From Marsupella aquatica (Eukaryota; Plantae; Marchantiophyta): DNA of 64,000 nucleotides. The stretch spans positions 19,358,803-19,422,802 of the forward strand of contig OZ316895.1 in NCBI GenBank assembly GCA_973895155.1, given 5' to 3'. Made by a program: the position numbers and the translations under genes. This document shows, piece by piece, positions 1 through 23,510 of the stretch. Under the pieces are notes generated by a model. It was not told where the DNA came from. It did not search any database and was given only the letters and a program-made list of their open reading frames with translations. Within the stretch, counting starts at the first letter, position 1. Every line of letters starts with the position of its first letter.

Positions 1-7
1 TGCAAAT

Positions 8-544
8 GTGCATTGTTGTTTCCTCCCGCTTGGTGAGGAGGAGAAGATGGTTCGAGGGTTCTTTGGCCATGGAGGGCTTGTTGACAAGCTATGTACCTCA
101 CAGACCGATTTCTTGATTGCAAATACGCGGAAACAGGCCGTGGAGCACTTCAGTGACTATGCTGGCTTGATCGAGCATTTCGCTGAAACCGTGCATTTCA
201 TCTCTACTCGGTGGGTAGAGTGCTCCATTCTTGCCAACAAGCAGTTGGATCCAGGAGAGTTCTTGTTGCATCCGAGTAGTGATCATGGTCTAGAAGATTC
301 GCCCGAGGATGATGATGGTGAGGCCTACCCTCCCACCTTGTCTAAATGTGACCTGTCACCCACTGAACTTCAGATTGCTATGTTTGATTACAAGGAAAGT
401 TGTGCAGCCGAGGTGGAGGCTCAGAGGCTACAGGCCGGTGAAGCTATTGTGCGGAAGAATTGGAATGCCAGCCAAAGGCGTGCTTCGTACAAGAAGAGGA
501 AAGTGGACAAGGAGTACTACTGGTCTGGAGAAGGGACTCCTTAA
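8..544 (+). CDS. BRCT-like domain protein, 3' portion (probable transposon cargo)
   Basis: GGLVDKLCTSQTDFLIA...VHFISTRWVECSILANKQLDPGEFLL matches the BRCT pattern (GG, THLI-like strand, WxxxC helix). The 5' part lies outside the window. Confidence 0.55.
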   Translation: MHCCFLPLGEEEKMVRGFFGHGGLVDKLCTSQTDFLIANTRKQAVEHFSDYAGLIEHFAETVHFISTRWVECSILANKQLDPGEFLLHPSSDHGLEDSPEDDDGEAYPPTLSKCDLSPTELQIAMFDYKESCAAEVEAQRLQAGEAIVRKNWNASQRRASYKKRKVDKEYYWSGEGTP

Positions 545-1193
545 TCAACATCAGTCTGGAGGGAGGGTGTAGAGGGATGACCATGACTCATGTAGGCTAC
601 ATTTGCAGTAGAAAGGATAGTACAGCTATTGTGTATCTCTATTTGGTCTATGTGCAGCAATAAACACATCCATGAGTGCTATTTGTCGCAACAATTGTGT
701 GGTTTGAATGTTGTATCTTTTTCCTGTGATTAACGTCGAGGAAAATTTAGTACGTTGACTGAACCGTCGTATCTAGTTATTAACGTCGTTCTACTTGAGG
801 TAATATATTTTCGTTGCGCCATCATCGTTAAGAACGTCGTTTTCACCGTGTTACGACGTATAGAAGGACGTTAATAAACCCTTATAACGTCGGCTGATGG
901 TTCGGTACACGACGTTAACTACCATTACGGTGAATTGGCGTAGCTATAAACGACGTTAGAGAATTTGGTATCGACGTAAATTGTTTTGGACGACGTTAAT
1001 GATAGTTATCCCTTGTAGCAAAAGGCCGAGGGATCATGTCCATAAATGTATGGTTATTACTTGTTTCTTTACCAAGTGATTAACAAGCCCATCCCACTCT
1101 ACAAATTGACAGATGCCTAGGCCATGAAATATGTCTGTTTATATGCGAACCGTGACAACAGTCAATACAAATGGGGATAGTGAGTCTATCATG

Positions 1194-4100
1194 TCAATCC
1201 TCCTCGTCTACAATAGCTGATGGCATGAAGCCCTTCCTGCGGCGTGGAAAGATGGGAATCACAATGGACCATCCTCCCATGCTGTGCATCGGAACCATAA
1301 TGCATTGATCCACTTGGCTAGGAAAAACTATAGTGTCACTAAACTCAGTCCCGCTTGGTGCAACACGGGTCGTGTCCACACGATAAAATCCACACTCATC
1401 CTTCACCATGGTAGCTCTTGCTGGAGGTGACATGATGGACTTGTGCCACCTCACCTCTAACACCGTGGTGGTAAACGAGCCAAAATTAACATCCAAAATA
1501 TCCAAGACAATGCCACAATAAGGAACCTCAACATCACCTACATCGGTCACCATATATACTCCAGAGTTACAAGTACTCTTCTTCATATGGTCCGTCCTCC
1601 AAGTCCGAAAGTGGTGCCCTGACTCATACATGTGAGTATGACTCATAGCCCACATCGAAGGCCCCCTAATGATGTTATGTACATCAATGGGAATGAATGT
1701 AGGGCCATGCACTGCAAGGAGCCCCTCCATGCGCTCCAAGGCCCATATGCGAAATGATGCATGAACACGGTCTTGTGCTGCCCCTATCCGCTGCTGCTCC
1801 ACCCATGCCTTGCAAGTATTGGGTCACATATACATTAGATCCCAATATGTGCCAACCACCTTGAATGTACATTTCAAATCTAAGTAGGACTCAACATGAA
1901 GGATTACGTCCCTACCTATACAACTCTCTCCAATCTGACATCTCGGTGCGGTTCTCCAACACATAATTGTGGATCTATCGGTGAAAAATGTCATCATGTA
2001 ATGATCGCTTCTTTGATGCGCCCATCACTCGCAACCCACCATTATCATCATCTTGTGCCTCTTCCCAAGCTGTGGGAGCTTGTTTGTCCAAACTCCCTAT
2101 CACCCCGCTTGAGTAGAACAGGCACTCCGATATAATATACCCTGTTGCCATACTTCCCGCTGGTCGAGCGGGTTTGGTGCACCCAAGACTTTAGCACTTT
2201 CATGAACCGCTCTACCCAATACATCCACCGCGCATGCACTGGACCAGCAATGGCTACCTCATCCACCAGATGACATAGCAAATGCAATTGCATGTCAAAA
2301 ATACATGGGGGAAACACCTTCTCCATATTGCACATAACACGGGCAGACCGTTCCCTCATCTCGGGAATCTCACTCTCCTTTATTTCCTTGGCGCATACCC
2401 ACCTGTAAGGGGTACTCAAGATTTTGTCAAATTATTAGTATGATAAACATATACAATGATCATATCATAAATATATGCCAACAAGACTATGCTAACCTGA
2501 AAATGGAGCACAACTCATATACTGTATGTCGGAGTAGGCGTCGCTCTCTAGAATCATCACAACAACGCAAGACAGCAGGTAACACATGCTGAATCAACTT
2601 GTGATAATCGTGAGACTTCAAGCCGATTGGGGGTATGTGGTCTTCCCTTGTAGTGCACCCACGGAAGCCGGCTCCGTAATGGCTAGGGAATTTCATTTCA
2701 CATATCATCCCGTTCATCTCCTTCAAAATCTGTTTTGGCAAAACCCAAGGAGCAGGTGGCTTCTCCCCATCTCGAGTTATCCAACAACTCTTGACCACTC
2801 CAACCTGCTTTGCATCCTCTCGGACCCCACGAGTATCATTCATCCCATAAATGTGCTTCACCAGGTTCTTGGCAACATTTACTTCAATATGCATGGGGTC
2901 CAACAACCATCGGATGTGGAGCCTCTACAAGATGAAGAACCAGGTTGTGCTAGTGAGAAACTCATAAATAGAATACTACAAGTCACTAACTTAAAATAGG
3001 TCCAATCTGATTTTACTTACCCTCCAATAAGGCAAGTCCCACAAAGCTGAGTGACGATTGACACCATAGTGCTTAGGTTGAAGTAACTTTGCCTCCACTT
3101 TCTCCGCCATTTGAATTTGACCCTCAGCTGAAGGCCCATTGGGACATGGCCTAAACTCAGTCTCAGCCCAATGTGTGGTGTTATGTCACAATATATTGTC
3201 CATTGGCAAACGAACCCTACTGCCCTCATATGTGGTTTTGTGCAGACGCTTGGAGTATCTCCCATGCAACTCAGGACCACATGAAGGGCAAGCTGAATAA
3301 CCGGCCACTTTCAAGCCAGATATTGTGCCCATACCTGTCAATGACACTTAAAACATTCAGGCCAAAATCCATTGTCACATGCAATAGAACCATGCACAAT
3401 GTATGTCTCAATTATTTCTATGACTGAGAATTACCTGGACCATCCATGGTGCAATGGGTGATCATTGCTCTCATATTAAATGTCCTCCCATTATCCGGTG
3501 TACGAGTCACATCTGTGGTCACTGCCCCAAACTCCCATAGCTTCTGCAACTCTTCATAAGCTGGAGCCAAACAAATGTCTGGATTTTTATAGGCCTGAGG
3601 ACCCGGAATGATAGCAAGGAGGAGAACATGACCCTTCTTCATCGCCAACCATGGAGGGATATTTTTATTGAGCAAAAGAACTGGCCATATGGACTTAGGC
3701 TTCCGTCGTTGCTTGTATGGGTTTACCCCATCTATTGCTAACCCCAATCGAATGTTCCTTGGCTCCCTAGAAAAATCCGGCCAAGTGCTGTCGATGTGCT
3801 TCCATGTTGGACTATCGTGGTGATACCACATAATCCCTGGTGGAGATTTGTTCTCAGCATGCCATGTTTGAAGTGCTGATAAATGTTTCCGTCGATAAAG
3901 ATGCTGTAGTCGGGGTGTGATCGGGAAATACCTGAAGACCTGCCATAAACAGTGTTACAAGCATCACTTCGACGTTAAATCAAAGTTAATTACGTCTCAC
4001 ACAACATAAATACACCTGTACAATGTAACATACGATGTAAAGTTTCTTAGCGATGTTAGTAACGTTGGCTACTTCAGTTTATGTCTTAATTAACAATGTA

Positions 4101-6623
4101 AATATATGTGTACCATGTAGTAGACGACGTAAAAACTAACAGGTGATTTGGAGACGTAAGTTACATCTTTAGAAAGGACGTACGTGTGCGTACATCAGAA
4201 ATGACGAGGAAAATGGGCAAAAATACGTTCTAACAAACGTAACACCACCAGGAGGAGGAGGACATCACCTTCTCTGGGATCTTTTTGCCGATGGTATTCG
4301 GTCGGTACCGTGGAAGCTTACATTGTGCCTCTGGGCACTCTATATGCTCAGAGTATGTCCCTTTGTACAGGATGCAACCACTTGGACACATGTGGATAGT
4401 CTCTAAAGCCAATCCAATTGAGGTTAACAACTTCTTAGCTTCCCTCACACACCCAGGGAGAGTGTTTGGTTGGGGCAATAGTTTTTGGTGGAATAGTTGG
4501 AATAGTGCATCTGTATGGACGTCTGAAGTGTTGAAAACTCCCTGCAAATTCAACATCAACAAAGTGGCACCCAACCTGCATTTGTGAAACCAGGGATTTG
4601 TATGCAATTAGTTTGAGGTATGACATTGGGTGTGGTAAGTAATGGTCGAAACATTGGGTGTGGTAAGTCATGGTCGACACATGATACTATTCAATCATGA
4701 GACTTACCGTGATGATGGAGAATCCAGGAAGAGTGGAGTTCTGGCTTCCATTTCCAACTGGTCCCAATCTTCCTGGTCTACTTCCATGGTAGGCCTCTCG
4801 CCCCGAGGTGCATGTGGTCCAAAGTGAACGTCCCAAGGTGGGCAAAAGCTTCCTCTTCAAGAATGGGTGCATCCCCCTCATCTCCATTGTCCTCATCAAA
4901 GTCTCCATCATATGCATCATGGTACTCCTCATGGTCACTATCCCCCTCAACATCTTCCTCATCATAAAAGTGCAGAGTGGCCCGTAGGTGAAAGTCACGC
5001 TCTGACATCATCATCATGGATGGGTGAGGTGTAGGGGTAATGTATGCACCATCCTACAATTGTTTAATACAATATTATAATCAAACAAATAATAAAATAT
5101 GATTTAATGCAATATGCAACAATGGGTCCATATATTCTGAATGTATCATGTCCATCCTCAATGCCAATCATAATCTACAAAAATCTCTTCCCTTGCTCAA
5201 ATGGTGCGGCTAGCATGGGTCAAGATGTAATGAGTACAAGTCTGTGGCAAACGAGGGTGGGTCTGGTCATGGTACTCGTGCCACTCAGCGTTTGGCCTAA
5301 AACCTAAACGCCGACAACCCACAGTGCTATTGATGTAACCTGCCAAGTTTCCAGTGCGGGGTGGATAACCATCCATCTGAGCATACCTAGGGTCTAGCTT
5401 GATAGACATGCCATATCGACCAAAGGTCGGACATTGTCGAGACAAGATGCGTCATCGCTGTGCAGAATACTTTGGCCCATAGAATGGAAAGAGCTGAGGC
5501 AAGTCCTCGGGCTGACAACCATCAAGGACCACAATATCTACAAGTGCAAATAATCCTAATCCTACATTGGGGCCCAATGTGGAGGGAAGGAGGACCCAAG
5601 GGCAGCCCCAGACTATGATAGGTTCCCTGATTGGAAGGTCCAATGGGAGCCCAAATTGGGTAGGAAATGAGTCCTTTATGATGTCCAAGGCTCTCCCACG
5701 TAACTCTCTCGGTTCCCGGGCACTAGATGCATCAAGAAAAGGGCAACGGGGTGGCCTCATCCTAGGCGGACGAGACTCCAACGACCGTGGTCTAGTACTG
5801 ACCACTACTCCCCTCTCAATAGGGTGCACCCATGCCACCCTCACCCTATCAAATACACGGTCTATTGCCCGTAAGGTGGCATCTAGTGCCGATGGGGGGA
5901 CCAGTGCAGAGAGCGCTCGATGTGCAACCTCTCTCATGCAGTCCTTAGGGGGAGACCGTACAATAAGAATCTGTTCCACATGTATGCAACAAAATTTCAA
6001 AAAGCGAGAAACATGAACATTGCTCAAGAAGCCAACCTACCCCAACCTAGTAAAAGTTAAAGTTACTCAAAATGGTTGTGCAAAAGGATAAAACTTACCT
6101 CTGGTGTCGGTGGAACATAACAATCGTGGATCCCTAAGTGGCTAACGATGGTAGTGCTCTCGTGAGATACAACGCCCTTGCATCGTCTACAAGGGCAAGG
6201 CATCTTGCGGACTGGTCCAATACCATGAAGAGCAGCCATGGCCGCTCCAAACCCCTCCTCCGCTGGCGAAGGTGAGTTGTATGCCTGGGGCTCACGTGAT
6301 CGCCGGCGACGGTGTGACCGATGATGGTGGCTCCTCTCTCTCCTTCCGTCCTCATGACTGGGACGGTGATGACGTCGAGATCCACTAGTCGTCCTCCGAG
6401 GCAATGACTAACGACCCCTGCTCTCTGGTGAATAATCCCTCCTATCCAGTGAGTCATCCCTCCACCTATCCGGCGTATAGTCCCTCCTCCTAACCAGTGA
6501 ATGATCCCTCCTCCTATCCGGCGAATAGTCTCTACCCCTATCACGATGCCGGTATCTGGAGCCAAGACTCGTATCCCCATCATCTCTCTCATCAGACAGA
6601 GAGTCCGATGCATAGATCACCAT
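1194..6623 (-). pseudogene. CACTA transposase (Transpos_assoc Zn finger + Transposase_21 + DUF4218 + DUF4216 type), multi-exon, with stops and frameshifts
   Basis: Motifs CPCRRC..SHL (~6130-6210); IHMCPSGCILY; RYFPITPRL; DSPTWKHID..EPRNIRLGLAIDGVNP; LDPMHIEVNV; GLKSHDYH; HLLCHLVDEVAIAGPVHARWMYWVERFMKVLK; NSGV..YCGIV..PSQVDQ. GT-AG introns link the pieces. Confidence 0.9.
5160..5970 (-). pseudogene. SET-domain (lysine methyltransferase-like) exon inside transposase intron 1
   Basis: ORFs 5452-6027 and 5197-5445 share one frame. Reading through the two TGA stops gives GLGLFALVDI..FPFYGP..DGYPPRTGNLAGYINS..PNAEW..ILTHASRTI*AREEIFVDYDW, all hallmark SET motifs in order. Confidence 0.8.
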
Positions 6624-7074
6624 GCCCTGCAACAAATTGAACTGTCTTTGATTAATGCGTAGGGAAGGATCCAAACCCTAAACCTACCACACAAACCCTA
6701 ACCCTAAAGTACAATGCCATACAGTATGTTACAAGGCCTTAACGTCGTTTTTCGAAGCAACCCTAACATTTAACATCGTCAATGGACCCGCAAACAATGA
6801 CCTTTAAAACACAAAGGACGATGTTTATCTAGATTAACGTTGTTAAGTATGATGTGTTATGTACGTCATTTCACCTAACGACATCTGTTACGACGTAAAA
6901 TCAGGAAAACGGCGGATCCGCAAGGTTAGGCATCCCCGGTCATTTCCTTTGGGAAACATCGAGGGAGTATCGAGGGAGTGTTTGAATGTGACTCACATTC
7001 AACATTCCCCACCTCTAGTCCTTACCTCTCCTTGCCTCCTCTACCTCACATAATCGCTCACAGAATAGTCTGCC

Positions 7075-9190
7075 ATGTCGTATCCAGGCTATCTTCCCTG
7101 TAGTGTGAACTTTGATGCACTGAAGGTGGGTTTGGAGGATCCAGAGGAGTTGGAGAAGGTGCATCGAGCCCTACGTTCGACACATTCACTAGTTCAAGCA
7201 TTCAACCACAGCTGGCAATTCATGGGAGGACAAGGAACAAAGGAGTCCAGGTTTATAGAATACCTGGAGAGTATTGAGGCCAACACTCCTGCCGACGAGG
7301 AGGGGGCCAAGATTGAGGAGGGGGCCGCGATTGAAGTGCCTGAATCCGTGCCCGAGCTTGATGGGGCATCGATTGATATGCTGCCTTCATTCCCGAGTCT
7401 ACCAGACGATGGTTGGGATGATCCTGCCTTCACTGGGATTCAACTAGATTCTCAGGCAGCAGCTCGAACTCCTATCAAGAGTCAAGTGACAATCCCACAT
7501 GAGAGATACAGGCCAGAAGATGATAGGAGGGACCATCGGCAACATAGGAGGAGGAGGAGGCAATCTCGTTCTTCGTCAAACAGCAGCACTGAAAGGAGAA
7601 GGCGAAAGGGGAAAGGATCCAATGACCACAATGCAGGCACTTCTAGCAAGAGACATAGGGGAGATCGACATACAGGAGCAGAGAGGAGAGAAGACCACTC
7701 ACGATCATTTCCTCCAGAGCGGCGACGTCCTTCTCAGCAAGCTGCAGCTGCTTCTGCCAACAGGGAGCACCTTCCCACCATCACCCTTGCCGCTTTTGAT
7801 GCTAGGCCGGACGTCATGGATAAGAAAGCACTCACGAACAGAGTGCAGACGTGCGTAGCTAAACACTATCCCGGTTGGACTACTTGGAAGGAGCTTGTGC
7901 ATAACCAGAAGAAGTTCCAATTGCTCCTGAATGATGTGCAGGCTGGATTCAGAAATGGGCGAGAGATTGACTACCGCCACATTAGGAAGAAGATCGTGAA
8001 TCACCTAGCTGATCGGCATTTCAGGTGGAGAGCCAAGGTCCAAAAACTGAGATGCTTGAGGACAAGGGATTACAAGAAACCTGATGGGATGAGTGAAGAG
8101 GACTTCAAATTGATTGTCTCCGAATTGGAAGCAGCCCCAGACACCCCAGTTGGCAAGCGAGTGCATATGGGAGACAAGGCCACTGCTGTTCGAAAAGCGA
8201 GTGGCAAGAAGGTGACTAATTTTTGGGGACAGGGAGGATGGGGAGGATTTCTTGCAACCTATGTAAGTGCAGTGACTCACTCTATACTCATTGAAGTCTG
8301 CATTCTGTGGTTGTGTGCTGCTGCGGTGAAATCCTGTGCTTTACATCGTTTTTTAGTATTAACGTCATCTTGGCCGCACATTACCTTCCCTCTTACGATG
8401 TTTTCTTAGACGTACCTTGCCTCTAACTATGTTAGCACTATATTAACGTCGTCCTGTCAACGTTAATACTATGGAATCACCCTGAATGTCTTAATGGACG
8501 ACGTATGTATTAGTAACGTCGTATGATGATAGGTAAATCACCCTGAACGACGTAACTTCCCTTTGCTGCAGAAGCGGAAGTATGGCCGAGATGTTGAGCC
8601 GAGTGAGCAGGAGTGGCTATACTCTAAGCGATATGGCCCGGCAGCCCTATGGGCAAAGCTTGACTCTGTTCCGGAAGACCACCCGGTAAGTGTGCTAGCT
8701 TGTTCAGTACCATTCCATAGACCTAGACTAAAACTGTGTCATGCAAACCTAGACTAAAATTGTATCTTGTGCACAGGTGGATTGGACTGCACCAGAGGGT
8801 TTAGTAGCACGACCCATTGAGGAGGATGAGGAGCCCAACACTGTAGCCCTGGAGGAGGGTACCTAGGAGGAGGACCCAGTACCTTGCGGTCAGCAGGGCT
8901 CCACTTCTCGTGACCTTTTCCCTGCACTAGAGACTCATAGGGCCAGAGGACAAGGAAGGGAGAGACAGAGGGAGGAGGGAGATAGAGATAGAGATAGAGA
9001 TAGGGAGAGATAGAGATAGAGAGAGGAGAAGGAGGAGTGGTGAGAGGCGGTCCACTAGGGTAACACATAGCACCAGGCAGATAGTGCCAAAACCTAGAGG
9101 CAAGGCTCCACCCTCGGCTGCACCGGAACCAGAAGGCAGTAGCAGTGCCTCAAAGCAGGATGCCCAGCAGTATCAGTTGCGTCGGTGACG
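7075..9190 (+). CDS. CACTA second ORF (TnpA/Ptta-like accessory protein, spliced; 3' end degraded)
   Basis: 444-aa ORF with Arg/Ser-rich and W-containing helical regions (TTWKEL, KPDGMSEEDF, WGQGGW). Donors near 8262 and 8686, acceptors near 8571 and 8776. Divergent from the transposase. Family assignment is inferred from position. Confidence 0.55.
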
Positions 9191-10075
9191 AGGCGGAGGA
9201 TCGAGACGTGATAGGCCCCATTCTCAACGACATTAGGTTGTAGGTATTTCAGTAGCAGGAGGTCCTCCATGCATTATGTACATATTTTTTGCCATTTTGA
9301 TTCAGGCCACCCATTTGTGGTGGCACCTCATTCCGGGTTACAATATGTCAAAACACATGGTTATATTGTGTGTGAGCTGAACCCTAACAAGGACCCCACC
9401 CAGACAGTGCAATGTGTAATAGGATGTATGTACTCCCGTATACGTCCTCCTTTATAAGACCTTTAACCACCACAGTACATCGTTGAGCCCTACATAAGCC
9501 AACGTACGTCGCACAACAAGAGCACGATATATCGTCCCCTACTATGTCAACTTACCCAAACGTCTCAAAAGAGGTCATAATATACCGGCCACGGACAACG
9601 CTAAAATAATACGACGTTTAGTGCATTGCACATTACGACGTACTAGACGTGGTTAATGTTTCATTACGTAGCCTGACACGACGTTTATGGGTAAACTTAC
9701 ACACGAGCATTGGCCATATTTTACGTAGCCTAACACGTTGAAAAATCATATACCTCCTATTGTACGACGTTAAGAACAATGTTTTGGACGTGGTAAAGAG
9801 CGTCTCCCCAAACATGGTAATTAACGTCGCTCTATTAATGTCGTGAATGAGGTCTTTCCTCCTCCGGCCATATACGTCGTGATTAACGTCTTCTAAAAGT
9901 CCGTTAATCAGCCGTAAAATGTAGTTGTGTACACTCTAACACTACCTAGAATGGTGTGACACAATGCATGATTGGATCTGATTTGGACATCAAGCAAAAA
10001 ACATGCACATGTGCAACCGAGTCCTTGTTGTCCTGCAAACATTGTCACACAGCTACAAATAGCGTTGCTTGCTTG

Positions 10076-10345
10076 TTTTCACAAAGAAAATGGACCTCCC
10101 TTGCCGATTCAGTCCGCCAACCAGCGCCACATAGTTGTCATAAAGAAAATGGACCTCCAAAGCCAATTTAGTCCTCCAACCAATGTCGCTTTTTTCACAA
10201 CAAAAATGGACCTCCAAACTTGCAGCGGCAAAATCCTCTAGGCCTCCATAGTCTACTCAAGATCAAGCTCAAGATCCAACGTCACGGCAGCGCACAATAG
10301 TCCTCCCAGTTGTCACAAAGAAAATGGGCCTCCAAACTTGCAGTA
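10076..10345 (+). repeat. Dispersed direct repeats TCACAAAGAAAATGGACCTCC (4 copies)
   Basis: Near-identical copies at about 10079, 10138, 10195 and 10313. Confidence 0.75.
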
Positions 10346-10869
10346 CCCCTCCCGGCCTCCACAGTCTACTACGGATCAAGGTCGGAACAACTAGAGGAGT
10401 CCTTTGATTTCTCACAAGCAAAATGCACATTGAGTTTGAAACTCAATGTTTGCGCATTTTGGTGGTTCGTCGACCATCCCTGGGCCCTCATTCTTGCTTC
10501 AGCTTCCACCCTCGACGCTACAACCGCCACCCAAATCTTTTCTGGCCATTGGATCTAAACCCTAGGCATCAATGGCCCTTGCAAACCCCAAGTGGGATCA
10601 TGGGTCCCCTAACCCATTTTAGACCCTGCCCCCAATAAACCCAAAACACAATCCTCGACAAAACCTAGCTTCACAAGAAGTTTTTTTAGAATGAAGTTTG
10701 GTTAGAGTTGGGCAAAAATGAAAACATGCATGTTGAGGCAAAAATGCATTCTTACACACTAAAAACAAACTTGTGTCCCAATTACAAGTAGACAGGTGGA
10801 CCAATACATACATTACGCGTGTTGCACATACATTTGGCACTAAGAACCCTAACTTTCTTGGACACCTTT

Positions 10870-20159: not shown

Positions 20160-21432
20160 TTGCCTTGACATCTCTCATCTCGCCTCACATTTATATCTTT
20201 ATCTCACCAAGACAATTTTTTTCTCACCCTTGACATCTTTTAGGTCCTTGATTTTGTTTCTTTCCTCCATATATTTTCTCATCTGACTCAACATCGTTTA
20301 GGTCCCTGATTTTTGTTTCTGTCCTCCATATATTTTATCATTTGACTCGACATCTTTTTCTCACCTCCACATCTTTTCTCACATTGACATCTTTTCTTTT
20401 TCTCACCTTACCATCTTTCTCTCACCAAAACATCTTTCCCTCACCCTCAACATCTTTTCTCTCCTCAACATTTTTTCCTCATCTTTACATCTTTTTCTCA
20501 CCTCGCCATGTTTTCTTTCCTTGACATCTTTTTTTCACCTTGACTTCTTTGCCTCACCTCAACATCTCTTTTTCTCATTGAATTGACATTTGTTTTCACC
20601 TCTACATCTGATCTTTTCCTCACTTTCACATTTTTATCTCACCACAACATCTTTCCTTCATCTCCACAGATTTTTTCTCACATTGTCATATTTTCTCTCC
20701 TTGACATATTTTTTGCTCGACTTCTTTTTCTCAGCTCGACATCTCTTTTTCTCTTCAACATCTTCGTTCACCTTGACATTTTCTCCTCGCCTCAACATCT
20801 TTTTCTTGCCTTGACATCTTTCCTCTCCCTTGACATCTTTTTCTCACTTCAACTAGTTTTTCTCACCACACCATCTTTTGTGCAACTTTTGTCTTAACTA
20901 CGATATCGTTTTTACTTAACGACAGCTTTTCTCTTAACAACATCTTGGGTGCCACAACATCTTTTTTACTAACAACATCTTGGGTGACACAACATCTTTT
21001 TTCTTAAGTACATTTTGGGTGCCATGACATTTTTTTCTTAACGACATCTTGGGTGACACGACATCGTTTTTCTTAATGTCACCTTGGGCGACACCACACC
21101 TTTTTTCCTTAATGGCATCTTGGGCAACACAAAATCTTAACGACATCTTGGGCGATAGTGCATGTTTTTCTTAATGACATCTTGGGCGACACAACATCTT
21201 TTTGTCTTAACGACATCTTGGGTGACACGATATCTTAACGACATCTTGGGCGATAGTGCATTTTTTTTCTTAATGACATCTTGGGCGACACAACATCTTT
21301 TTGTCTTAACGACAGCTTGGGTGACATGAATCTTTTTTTTCTTAACGACATCTTGGGTGACACGACATCTTGGGTGACACGACATCTTGGGTGACACGAC
21401 ATCTTTTGTGCAACGCACAGGTATTGAGCTAG
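20160..21432 (+). mobile_element. Non-autonomous Helitron 3' portion with internal minisatellite
   Basis: Hairpin TGTGCAACGCACA (21407-21419) followed by CTAG|T (21429-21433), the canonical Helitron 3' end. 5' end not located. Confidence 0.65.
20930..21405 (+). repeat. Minisatellite built on GACATCTTGGG(T/C)GACAC
   Basis: About 13 copies with variable T-rich spacers. The final copies are a head-to-tail 17-bp repeat. Degenerate TTGACATCTTTT units extend upstream to about 20160. Confidence 0.9.
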
Positions 21433-22019
21433 TTTCACTATAATTCATCTTTGCCTTTTGCGCTTGCCCTCACAACTGAATGTGTTTGGTCTTTTGAGTG
21501 GTTGTTGGTCATTGCCCTGGATTGGGTCCTGTAGGTTACTCCCTTGTTTTATTGAGGTTGACTTTCTCTTAAACCACAACTACTTGTATAAGAGCTAAGG
21601 GTTACCAGTAACTTTCATGCATTATACAATGCACACGGTTCCAAGAACGGAAAAGCTCACTTTTGATGGTGAGCACACTACTCACCAGGGCAGGAATGAA
21701 CATAAGAGGGAATGCGGCCCTTTTATATTGTCAGCTGTGGGTGAAGTGCTTTCTTCAAGAAAACAATAATAAATATACAAAACCAGAACTCGCTAAAGTC
21801 TTTTACATTTCCAGCTCACACGTAAAGCAGACTCGTTGTACCACAGAGAGCACGAGAGGCGCTAAGAGAACCCTCTCGAAAGACAATAGCCGTTGCGGGG
21901 GCAACCACCTCACCGGTCTGGGGACCCGACGAACTCCATGACCTACAAGAAGTGACCAACTGAACTCACGTCCATTTGGAGAACTACGAAACAGTGGTGG
22001 ACAAAGATGCTGGATGGAC

Positions 22020-23510
22020 TCGACCATCTTACCTTCTGCGGACGGTCCCCCCCACCCCAGCGTTTCTGTCCTTGCTCTCTTCCTTTGACACCACCGTGAT
22101 GCGGGTCTTTGGTCACCTCATCGGTCCTGGAGCCCTTGATGGAGAGGATGGTTCTTTTGCGGCTAGGCAGACGTCTCTGCCCCCATCGGGAGGTGGTTTG
22201 GGGGTGTCCTCGGCTGTGGTTGTTGCTCCTTGTGCGTTTCTTGGCAGCTGGGCGCAGGTGGCCCCCGCCTTGGCGTCACGTTTCATTGTGGACCTTCGGC
22301 CTATCCTCTCTGACTCGGTCATGGGAGTGGAGAACGGAGCTCTCCCTTTTCAGATCCAGCTTCGTCATGCCCGGTCCTTATTACCGGAGGATGTGCAGAG
22401 CGTGGTCCCTGCTTTTGAGGGAGTTATTTTGGACAGTCCCGACCGAGTTCAACAGGTGATCTCTGATCGCATGCACCGATTCACCCTTTCTAGCATGCTT
22501 TCCGACGCACCCTCTGACTTGGTTCGAGCGCGTCTTTTATCCGGTTCGGGCGTTGGTTCGGGGGCTTGGTTATCTGTGAGCCCATTGTGGGCCCCCTTTT
22601 GTATGAGTTCTTTTGTCTTCACCACTTCCATGCGCCTCCGTCTTGGTCTTCCCCACCCATGCCTCCTTGGGCAACCCACATGTGTTTGTGGAGCGCCCTT
22701 GGATAGGGGGGAATCCATATCCTACGATGTGGTCATGGTAGTGAGCGGACGGCGACACACGATGACATCCGAGATGTGGTAGCCGCCATCGCTCGTGATT
22801 CCGGGTATCATGTTATGATGGAGCAACGACATGTGTTACCACCCCGGGATGGAGTACCGGACAGGCGTCGGGCCGATTTGGTTTTCTCTCGCGCTGGTGT
22901 TCGTGCCCTTGGGGATGTGGTTGTTGCTGACCCCACTAGTGGAGCCAATTTGGCGTCCGCTGCCCACATCCCAGGTCATGCTGCCACGAGGGCTGCTCGC
23001 CTCAAGGAGGAGGCTTATGCTACGCGTTACCCAGGGGACCTTTTCTACCCGTTTGCCGTGGAGGTCTTTGGAGCGTTGCACCCGACTTTTGACCAGTTCT
23101 TGCGCTCCTGTGCGGTTCATTATGTCGAGCGGCGGCCTTATCCACCAGTCTCTGTTATCACATCCTTTTTTAGACAGAGGGTGTCCATTGCACTTCAGCG
23201 TGCACAGGCCTTCACTATCCTTCGTAGAGGCGAGGCGGTTGGAGTCCGGGCATCTAGTCGGATTCCATTGCTTGACCCCCCTATGCAGTTCACGACGGAG
23301 CTTTATCAGGCCCTTCACTGTGCCGTTGGGTAGCCTTTAGGTTTATGTGTCCTTTGTTCTCCTTGGGCTGGGCTTGTGCCTGGTCTTTTTTGTTTTTGCT
23401 CTTTGGCCTTTTGGCCTTTTTTCTTGTTTTCCCTTGATTGGGTTTTTTGGCCTGTGGGATCCTGTCTCCCAGTTCTGCGCCTCCTGCTCTTTGGCAGTTT
23501 GATATATATA
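22020..23510 (+). mobile_element. 5'-truncated non-LTR retrotransposon with restriction-like endonuclease (CRE/R2-type)
   Basis: RPSYLLRTVPP..GGLGV..AFLGSW..LRLGLP; CCHC knuckle CVCG..H..RC across a frameshift near 22710; HD..RD; RADLV..GDVVVADP..KEEAY..PFAVEVFG (PD-(D/E)xK). Stop at 23333, then a T-rich 3' UTR. Confidence 0.8.

Follow-up and report, generated by a model that had tools for sequence, protein, structure and literature searches.

What is the function of the short CpG-containing word that recurs in the noncoding DNA of a transposon in the liverwort Marsupella aquatica? The transposon lies at the beginning of a stretch of 64,000 nucleotides (GenBank assembly GCA_973895155.1, contig OZ316895.1, positions 19,358,803 to 19,422,802 of the forward strand), which we call the window and to which all coordinates below refer. 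By its sequence, it is a decayed CACTA/EnSpm element. Copies of the word form five clusters, one near the visible end of the element and the others at places that are, or probably are, internal. We suggest, with moderate confidence from the analysis as a whole, that these clusters are TnpA-type binding arrays for the protein of the element's own second gene, ORF2, which would use the terminal one in transposition and the internal ones to keep the promoter and the genes open.

Occurrence and placement of the motif

Exact matches to TTAACGTCG or its reverse complement occur nine times in the window, against 0.18 expected, and none of 100 shuffled sequences equalled this count. The matches start at 730, 780, 910, 991, 3970, 6739, 8443, 9765 and 9821, and there are none in the other 54 kb. 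The sites listed in an initial annotation of this DNA are confirmed as exact matches, with two of them moved by one position (8442 and 9820 had been given for 8443 and 9821) and with the site at 9765, which had been missed, added. When up to one mismatch is allowed, the window has 27 matches, of which 24 are in 730–9891 and three in the other 54 kb. Within the window, the motif is thus enriched inside the element relative to the DNA outside it, with 9/9 exact matches and 24/27 near-matches inside. A profile built from the 24 near-match sites reads (A)TTAACGTCG(T).

All 24 near-matches in the element fall in its noncoding DNA (3,107 bp) and none in its 6,821 coding bp (binomial p = 8e-13), where the split between coding and noncoding is that of our own exon annotation. 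The motif is present in each of the five noncoding stretches that measure about 300 bp or longer, whereas all nine short introns of the element (62–132 bp) hold zero copies. For this reason, the rule is 'every long noncoding stretch' and not 'all noncoding DNA'. The earlier description of the motif as occurring in noncoding segments throughout the element, not only subterminally, therefore holds for the five long stretches but not for the short introns. The same word is found at the true terminus of the element and at the internal places.

The copies were also counted in a decay-tolerant way, in which the CpG of the word may read TG or CA. The counts for the five clusters are given in Table 1, and there is one extra copy at 9228; in the other 54 kb of the window, the maximum is three copies per any 330 bp. 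In local dinucleotide shuffles (1,000 per cluster), the observed count was reached by none for four clusters and by 12 for cluster 2, in an intron of the TnpD transposase gene, which makes this the statistically weakest cluster. The spacing of the word inside the clusters is irregular (9–86 bp), and pairwise alignments of the clusters recover mainly the word itself, with little else in common. A tandem-repeat origin of the clusters was rejected, as a tandem array was sought in all five and found in none.

Tandem arrays of 19-bp and 35-bp units are seen elsewhere in the window, at 20170–21410. The 35-bp unit holds TTAACGAC, which is near the motif, but it stands in tandem and belongs to another repeat.

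Genes and ends of the element

The Pfam matches of the element are to TnpD-type domains (Transposase_21, E 6.7e-36; DUF4218, E 1.1e-23; Transpos_assoc, E 0.0018). Its right end at 9929 fits the CAC..GTG type of terminus, reading CACAA inward and not the literal CACTA; this is the one end visible, and the left end lies outside the window. A contig of sequencing run X4 aligns by letters 1–316 of its 369 to 9606–9929 and then departs from the window sequence. The aligned contigs, from four runs of four studies (of 6 listed), come from many diverged copies of the family; their summed depth is used here as a sign of many copies only, and not as a copy number.

ORF2 begins at 7075 on the plus strand and exon 1 is on the minus strand; the 451-bp stretch with cluster 3 is thus the common starting point of both genes. 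Exon 1 ends in phase 0, and the SET exon (at 5970) and the TnpD exon (at 5053) both begin in phase 0 after AG. Because these phases match, alternative splicing is predicted, by which exon 1 would be joined either to the SET exon, giving a zinc-finger-SET protein, or to the transposase exons. The SET exon is thus a predicted alternative terminal exon that shares exon 1 with the transposase.

The BRCT-like open reading frame (ORF) at the left edge of the window has one homologue at 68%, and its summed contig depth is on par with that of the TnpD exons. One contig connects the ORF with position 671, and diverged contigs of both runs aligned there, X2 and X4, continue upstream of 715 with window-like sequence. 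This ORF is likely a third gene of the element, carried as cargo. From its depth and from these contigs, it follows that cluster 1 is probably internal. The other possibility, that cluster 1 is the left end of the element, is disfavoured by the same continuation of the contigs and by the absence of any terminus match nearby.

Table 1. Clusters of the motif and genes of the element, in order of position in the window.
Feature	Positions	Strand	Remarks
BRCT-like ORF, 3' part	2-544	+	Pfam BRCT_2, E 0.12; converges on the transposase gene; 5' part outside the window
Cluster 1	730-999		8 copies, both orientations; between two converging genes
TnpD transposase exons	1194-5053	-	Transposase_21, DUF4218; stops and frameshifts in this copy
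Cluster 2	3970-4133		5 decay-tolerant copies (2 at ≤1 mismatch); 329-bp TnpD intron, 3940-4268
SET-domain exon	5158-5970	-	Ends in its own stop codon; alternative terminal exon by prediction; this copy has two in-frame stops
Exon 1	6099-6623	-	Arg/Ser-rich stretch and CPCxxC zinc-finger-like transposase-associated domain (Transpos_assoc, E 0.0018, weak)
Cluster 3	6739-6961		6 decay-tolerant copies; inferred promoter, 451 bp between exon 1 and ORF2, which start divergently
ORF2	7075-9243	+	Exons 7075-8262, 8572-8685 and 8777 onward; 3' part broken
Cluster 4	8340-8556		8 decay-tolerant copies; 309-bp ORF2 intron, 8263-8571
Cluster 5	9612-9891		6 copies, both orientations; subterminal
Right terminus	9905-9929	-	CACAACTACA, read inward from 9929

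A relative with a cluster at the same position

A metagenome scan gave two related loci, L001 and L002, from 24 candidate stretches. L001 is 2,195 bp in length and 46% identical over the SET match. It has a serine-rich exon 1 with CPCxxC, then a SET exon in phase 0 with its own stop, and then an acidic exon in phase 0. No significant tblastn match was found between this acidic exon and that of the window, so its identity rests on position. In the 321 bp upstream of exon 1, L001 has a cluster of its own, made of a shifted word that also contains CpG, TTACG(T/A)CC. The best 8-mer is present in seven copies, a count that 0 of 60 shuffles reached (mean 4.3, largest 6) with the motif search included. 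The copies lie 101–294 bp before the ATG of exon 1 in L001 and 117–331 bp before it in the window. No cluster was seen in the L002 intron or in the two short L001 introns, and L002 does not include the upstream region. Scans of viral and prokaryote collections gave no relative of the element; a doubled word was present at 78 viral loci, and these showed no similarity to it.

CpG content and variation

The clusters had been described as CpG-rich, and the ratio of observed to expected CpG is indeed elevated, at 0.92–2.53 in the clusters versus 0.27–0.79 in the exons. However, the excess is mostly the motif itself, since outside the motif copies the ratio is 0.59 in the promoter stretch and 0.28 in the ORF2 intron. 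As the CpG excess is bound to the motif copies, a general CpG island was rejected, and the excess does not point to a demethylated island. The CpGs stand in an ACG or CGT context in 91/112 cases in the clusters versus 78/193 in coding DNA, and in a full ACGT in 46/112 versus 9/193.

For variation in cluster 1, the contigs of runs X2 and X4 were aligned to 712–1010, with 34 differing positions listed. A difference is listed only if it exceeds 15% of the summed contig depth; this depth is uneven, and most rows come from few contigs. CpG transitions among family copies, some of them inside motifs, account for 23 of the 34 differences. The cluster CpGs are therefore likely to have been methylated in many copies, as expected of dead insertions. 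Positions outside CpGs vary among the family contigs in 0/52 cases in motifs versus 17/189 others (p = 0.014), and CpGs vary in 0/8 cases in exact motifs versus 13/21 others (p = 0.003). If only positions of comparable contig depth are taken, the varying CpGs are 2/6 in motifs versus 8/10 others (p = 0.09), and the other varying positions are 0/28 in motifs versus 11/119 elsewhere (p = 0.09). When two-mismatch sites are included, the difference between motif CpGs and other CpGs is gone. The lower variation at motif positions is thus suggestive and is confounded with depth. In the loose ends of more diverged contigs, the word is kept or gained where the spacer of cluster 1 differs.

ORF2 as the candidate binder

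A HMMER search with the core of ORF2 (7768–8262) gave 16 relatives, and a word-index search with the full ORF2 exon gave zero matches. The alignment and the model of the core were made from 15 sequences; P0028, a repetitive, chance-like match, and P0034, with an overlap of 27 residues, were left out. Relative P0023 runs through both ORF2 splice joints, and the intron that holds cluster 4 is therefore supported.

The predicted fold of the core (pLDDT 84.7) has helices at residues 16–33, 47–59 and 69–93. Taking a tandem three-helix helix-turn-helix arrangement as the criterion, the model has one three-helix unit plus two further helices. The third helix (69–93) carries nine Lys or Arg versus one Asp or Glu. 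The structural neighbours of the core include Myb-like Reb1 (Z 6.4, root-mean-square deviation (rmsd) 3.6, 71 aligned) and BEN domains (Z 5.6, rmsd 2.9, 63 aligned), and further the P-element transposase, ARR1 and homeodomains. Sequence searches of the PDB gave no useful match, and all matches in an Atlas search were under 0.9. ORF2 is the best candidate for the binder, and a likely one, TnpA-like but not a proven TnpA.

Proposed function of the arrays

We propose that the ORF2 protein binds the arrays. The terminal array would serve transposition, as in other CACTA elements, and the internal arrays would keep the central promoter and the gene bodies open against silencing. The two main genes start centrally in the element, and sites at the termini only would be too far away to act on the promoter, which may be why the arrays moved inward. 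They would likely have spread by the copying of short segments within the element, and the word and its binding protein would co-evolve. Binding, this co-evolution and local demethylation are what the work on Spm and VANDAL elements would lead us to expect here. The five to eight copies per cluster, versus at most three per 330 bp outside, fit the 'four or more neighbouring motifs' of Spm families. Docking sites for an element-encoded protein, which had been proposed in the initial annotation, thus remain the best reading, supported by the confinement of the motif within the window, the cluster in L001, the predicted basic domain of ORF2 and the analogy with Arabidopsis TnpA. The targeting code for the SET product that was part of the same proposal is without direct support.

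Several observations weigh against ORF2-binding arrays. The ACGT core of the word is also a common word of host transcription factors. There is only one relative with an upstream region, L001, which starts 321 bp before the ATG; because this contig starts so close, its cluster may be a subterminal one and not one of the promoter. For cluster 1 to be internal, the BRCT-like gene must be part of the element, and none of the listed contigs bridges cluster 1 and the 3' end of TnpD (with 31 letters on each side). The CpG transitions among the family copies, the weaker contrasts at comparable depth and the loss of the CpG difference with two-mismatch sites, all described above, count on the same side. 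For ORF2, the structural matches found with VIA are all below Z 8 and are mixed with unrelated helical domains, the top one being the tRNA-binding domain of GlnRS (Z 6.5). No Foldseek match of the ORF2 model fell under E 0.001, and a Pfam scan of ORF2 found no family and no TnpA family. Finally, in Arabidopsis, the binding and demethylation by TnpA are confined to the termini, according to the accessible text of the report (10.64898/2026.08.24.746577).

The SET domain

Could the clusters instead be an address code that brings the zinc-finger-SET isoform to the element's own DNA, likely by way of ORF2, and so lets the element write a histone mark of its own? The SET domain itself is real, its fold being confirmed on a homologue. 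The match of the window exon to Pfam SET (E 7e-4) is under the cut-off, but homologue P0002, which is 60% identical, has a SET fold, with 278 Foldseek matches under E 0.001 and a VIA match to SET8 at Z 12.1 (rmsd 2.4, 121 aligned). Of the 17 relatives of the domain, two have annotations in the liverwort Calypogeia fissa, at 47% and 59% identity. At the in-frame stop at 5452, nearly all of the aligned contig depth of runs X4, X2 and X5 has another reading. An NH motif is usual in SET domains. In the 18 aligned sequences, the key residues GxG, YxG, GxxN and the C-terminal Tyr hardly vary or do not vary at all, which agrees with an address code, whereas the replacement of the NH His by Ser in 18/18, giving NS with the Asn kept, speaks against one.

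The layout of the gene is compatible with such a code, since the SET exon is flanked by clusters 2 and 3 and would share exon 1 with the transposase in an arrangement kept in L001, and since internal sites would suit a mark over the gene body. However, the splicing of exon 1 to the SET exon is a prediction from the phases. In addition, the structural matches have tied Z scores across H3K4, H3K27, H3K36 and H4K20 enzymes and PR domains, and because they span so many enzyme classes, the substrate cannot be read from them. The predicted SET protein has no recognisable sequence-specific DNA-binding domain, so it would need a bridge to reach the motif. Nothing ties the SET domain to the motif, and its recruitment would be an added, unsupported step. 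We therefore regard the address code as unlikely. The larger scheme of a reader-plus-writer anti-silencing system in a liverwort CACTA element is improbable to a like degree; in it, ORF2 would read the arrays and recruit the SET isoform, and a sequence-addressed histone mark would protect only the cognate copies.

Nested elements, segment copying and host factors

It is rather unlikely that the internal clusters are relics, either nested small elements or copied subterminal pieces, with no internal function. The initial annotation had named separate nested miniature inverted-repeat transposable elements (MITEs) as a source of the clusters that would refute its proposal. A search for inverted-repeat pairs around clusters 2, 3 and 4 (length/mismatches of 8/0, 10/1 and 12/2) found none, so that nested MITEs are unlikely and unsupported for three of the four internal clusters. 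A copy of the element's own terminus was also sought near the internal clusters and was not found (best local score 16). Cluster 1 lies inside a segment, 573–1013, at whose ends are a 12-bp inverted repeat with two mismatches and a 5-bp direct repeat. The probability of this repeat by chance is about 0.0013 for a single search, before correction for four clusters and three lengths; it is either chance or an old insertion, and we count it in favour of relics. The two motif-bearing introns are about 210–230 bp longer than the short ones, which also agrees with relics. Moreover, sites 781 and 4125 have about 30 bp of common flank beyond the word, with a score of 24 versus 20.5 for the largest of 60 shuffled sets, and this points to the copying of short segments inside the element. 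Relics would not explain, however, that the clusters have little in common but the word, that all four internal places are noncoding, or that L001 has its cluster at the same position.

The least likely of the alternatives is that the clusters bind host transcription factors of the bZIP or NAC type, which read an ACGT core, and are ordinary enhancers accumulated by the element; the excess of full ACGT among the cluster CpGs, the ACGT often held by the L001 word too, and the position of three clusters, two of them intronic and one in the inferred promoter, would agree with this. It is opposed by the word being a fixed 9–10-mer that is shifted in L001, where several copies read ACGAC and not ACGT, and by the use of the same word in the subterminal array, which in CACTA elements is where the sites for the element's own protein lie (PMC2613891).

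Comparison with known systems

The following comparison is limited to the accessible text of the papers cited. The TnpA system of Spm/CACTA elements, such as maize En/Spm, is one of the closest. In Arabidopsis, TnpA proteins (TnpA-Spm1, with the word CCVTCGCAAA, and TnpA-Spm3) bind clustered family-specific words, and four or more neighbouring motifs are family-specific for Spm (10.64898/2026.08.24.746577). Subterminal words vary between CACTA families (PMC2613891), TnpA and TnpD occur as spliced or separate genes (PMC13547354), and CACTA/EnSpm elements have 5'-CAC..GTG-3' termini and are known to carry TET cargo (PMC12730594). The Marsupella element resembles this system in its superfamily, in its irregular, two-orientation clusters of at least four copies of a 9–10-bp CpG word, in the variation of the word between related families, and in a second ORF with a predicted three-helix domain. 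It differs in having three, probably four, internal clusters, where Spm TnpA has sites at the termini only, and in its divergent genes from a central promoter and its SET exon. Unlike known TnpA, ORF2 has no sequence match to TnpA-like domains, which in the accessible text of two sources are reported only in flowering plants (10.64898/2026.08.24.746577; PMC13547354).

VANC binds words in introns and in intergenic and terminal regions of VANDAL elements, in tandem repeats (PMC5735166, PMC10398659). The element is similar in having short words in noncoding intron, intergenic and terminal DNA that are absent from exons and that vary between families. However, VANDAL elements have a Mutator-like transposase and not one of the CACTA type, and their words stand in tandem repeats, whereas those described here are dispersed. 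Binding and demethylation have been demonstrated for VANDAL/VANC and are proposed here. SET cargo has been described in Plavaka (EnSpm lineage, PAG2, red algae), HarbingerS and Helitrons (10.1101/2025.02.11.637652). Plavaka shares with our element a SET domain as DNA-transposon cargo and repeat arrays, which were proposed as self-binding sites there, but its SET domain is part of a separate gene, joined to an adenine methylase, whereas here it would be an alternative terminal exon of the transposase gene in a land-plant CACTA element. The feature is real and would function like a TnpA or VANC address system. The element is of the CACTA type, and on the tests made here it is counted in neither the TnpA-type nor the VANDAL/VANC system.

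In the literature covered, mostly by title and opening of the abstract and outside subscription journals and Repbase, we found no account of internal motif clusters in a CACTA element or of a SET exon in a liverwort CACTA element. Anti-silencing by TnpA and VANC has been described in flowering plants, and TnpA-Spm1 relies on host demethylases and acts at termini. The CACTA element described here, from a liverwort, has a VANDAL-like layout of internal sites and itself encodes both a candidate reader and a candidate chromatin writer. With it, one can ask whether sequence-specific self-activation is older than the flowering plants, and whether SET domains carried by transposons are directed to the DNA of the transposons themselves. 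Should the TnpA-type reading alone hold, this would be a modest extension of a known system.

Neighbouring sequences

A CACTAC word is found 10 bp past the end of the element and is followed by 59-bp repeats (9939–10343), possibly the start of another element. One contig of run X2 corresponds to 9975–10400 without differences. Farther along the window, the reading frames at 21964–23330 resemble what we take to be the end of a non-LTR (long terminal repeat) retrotransposon with a restriction-like endonuclease.

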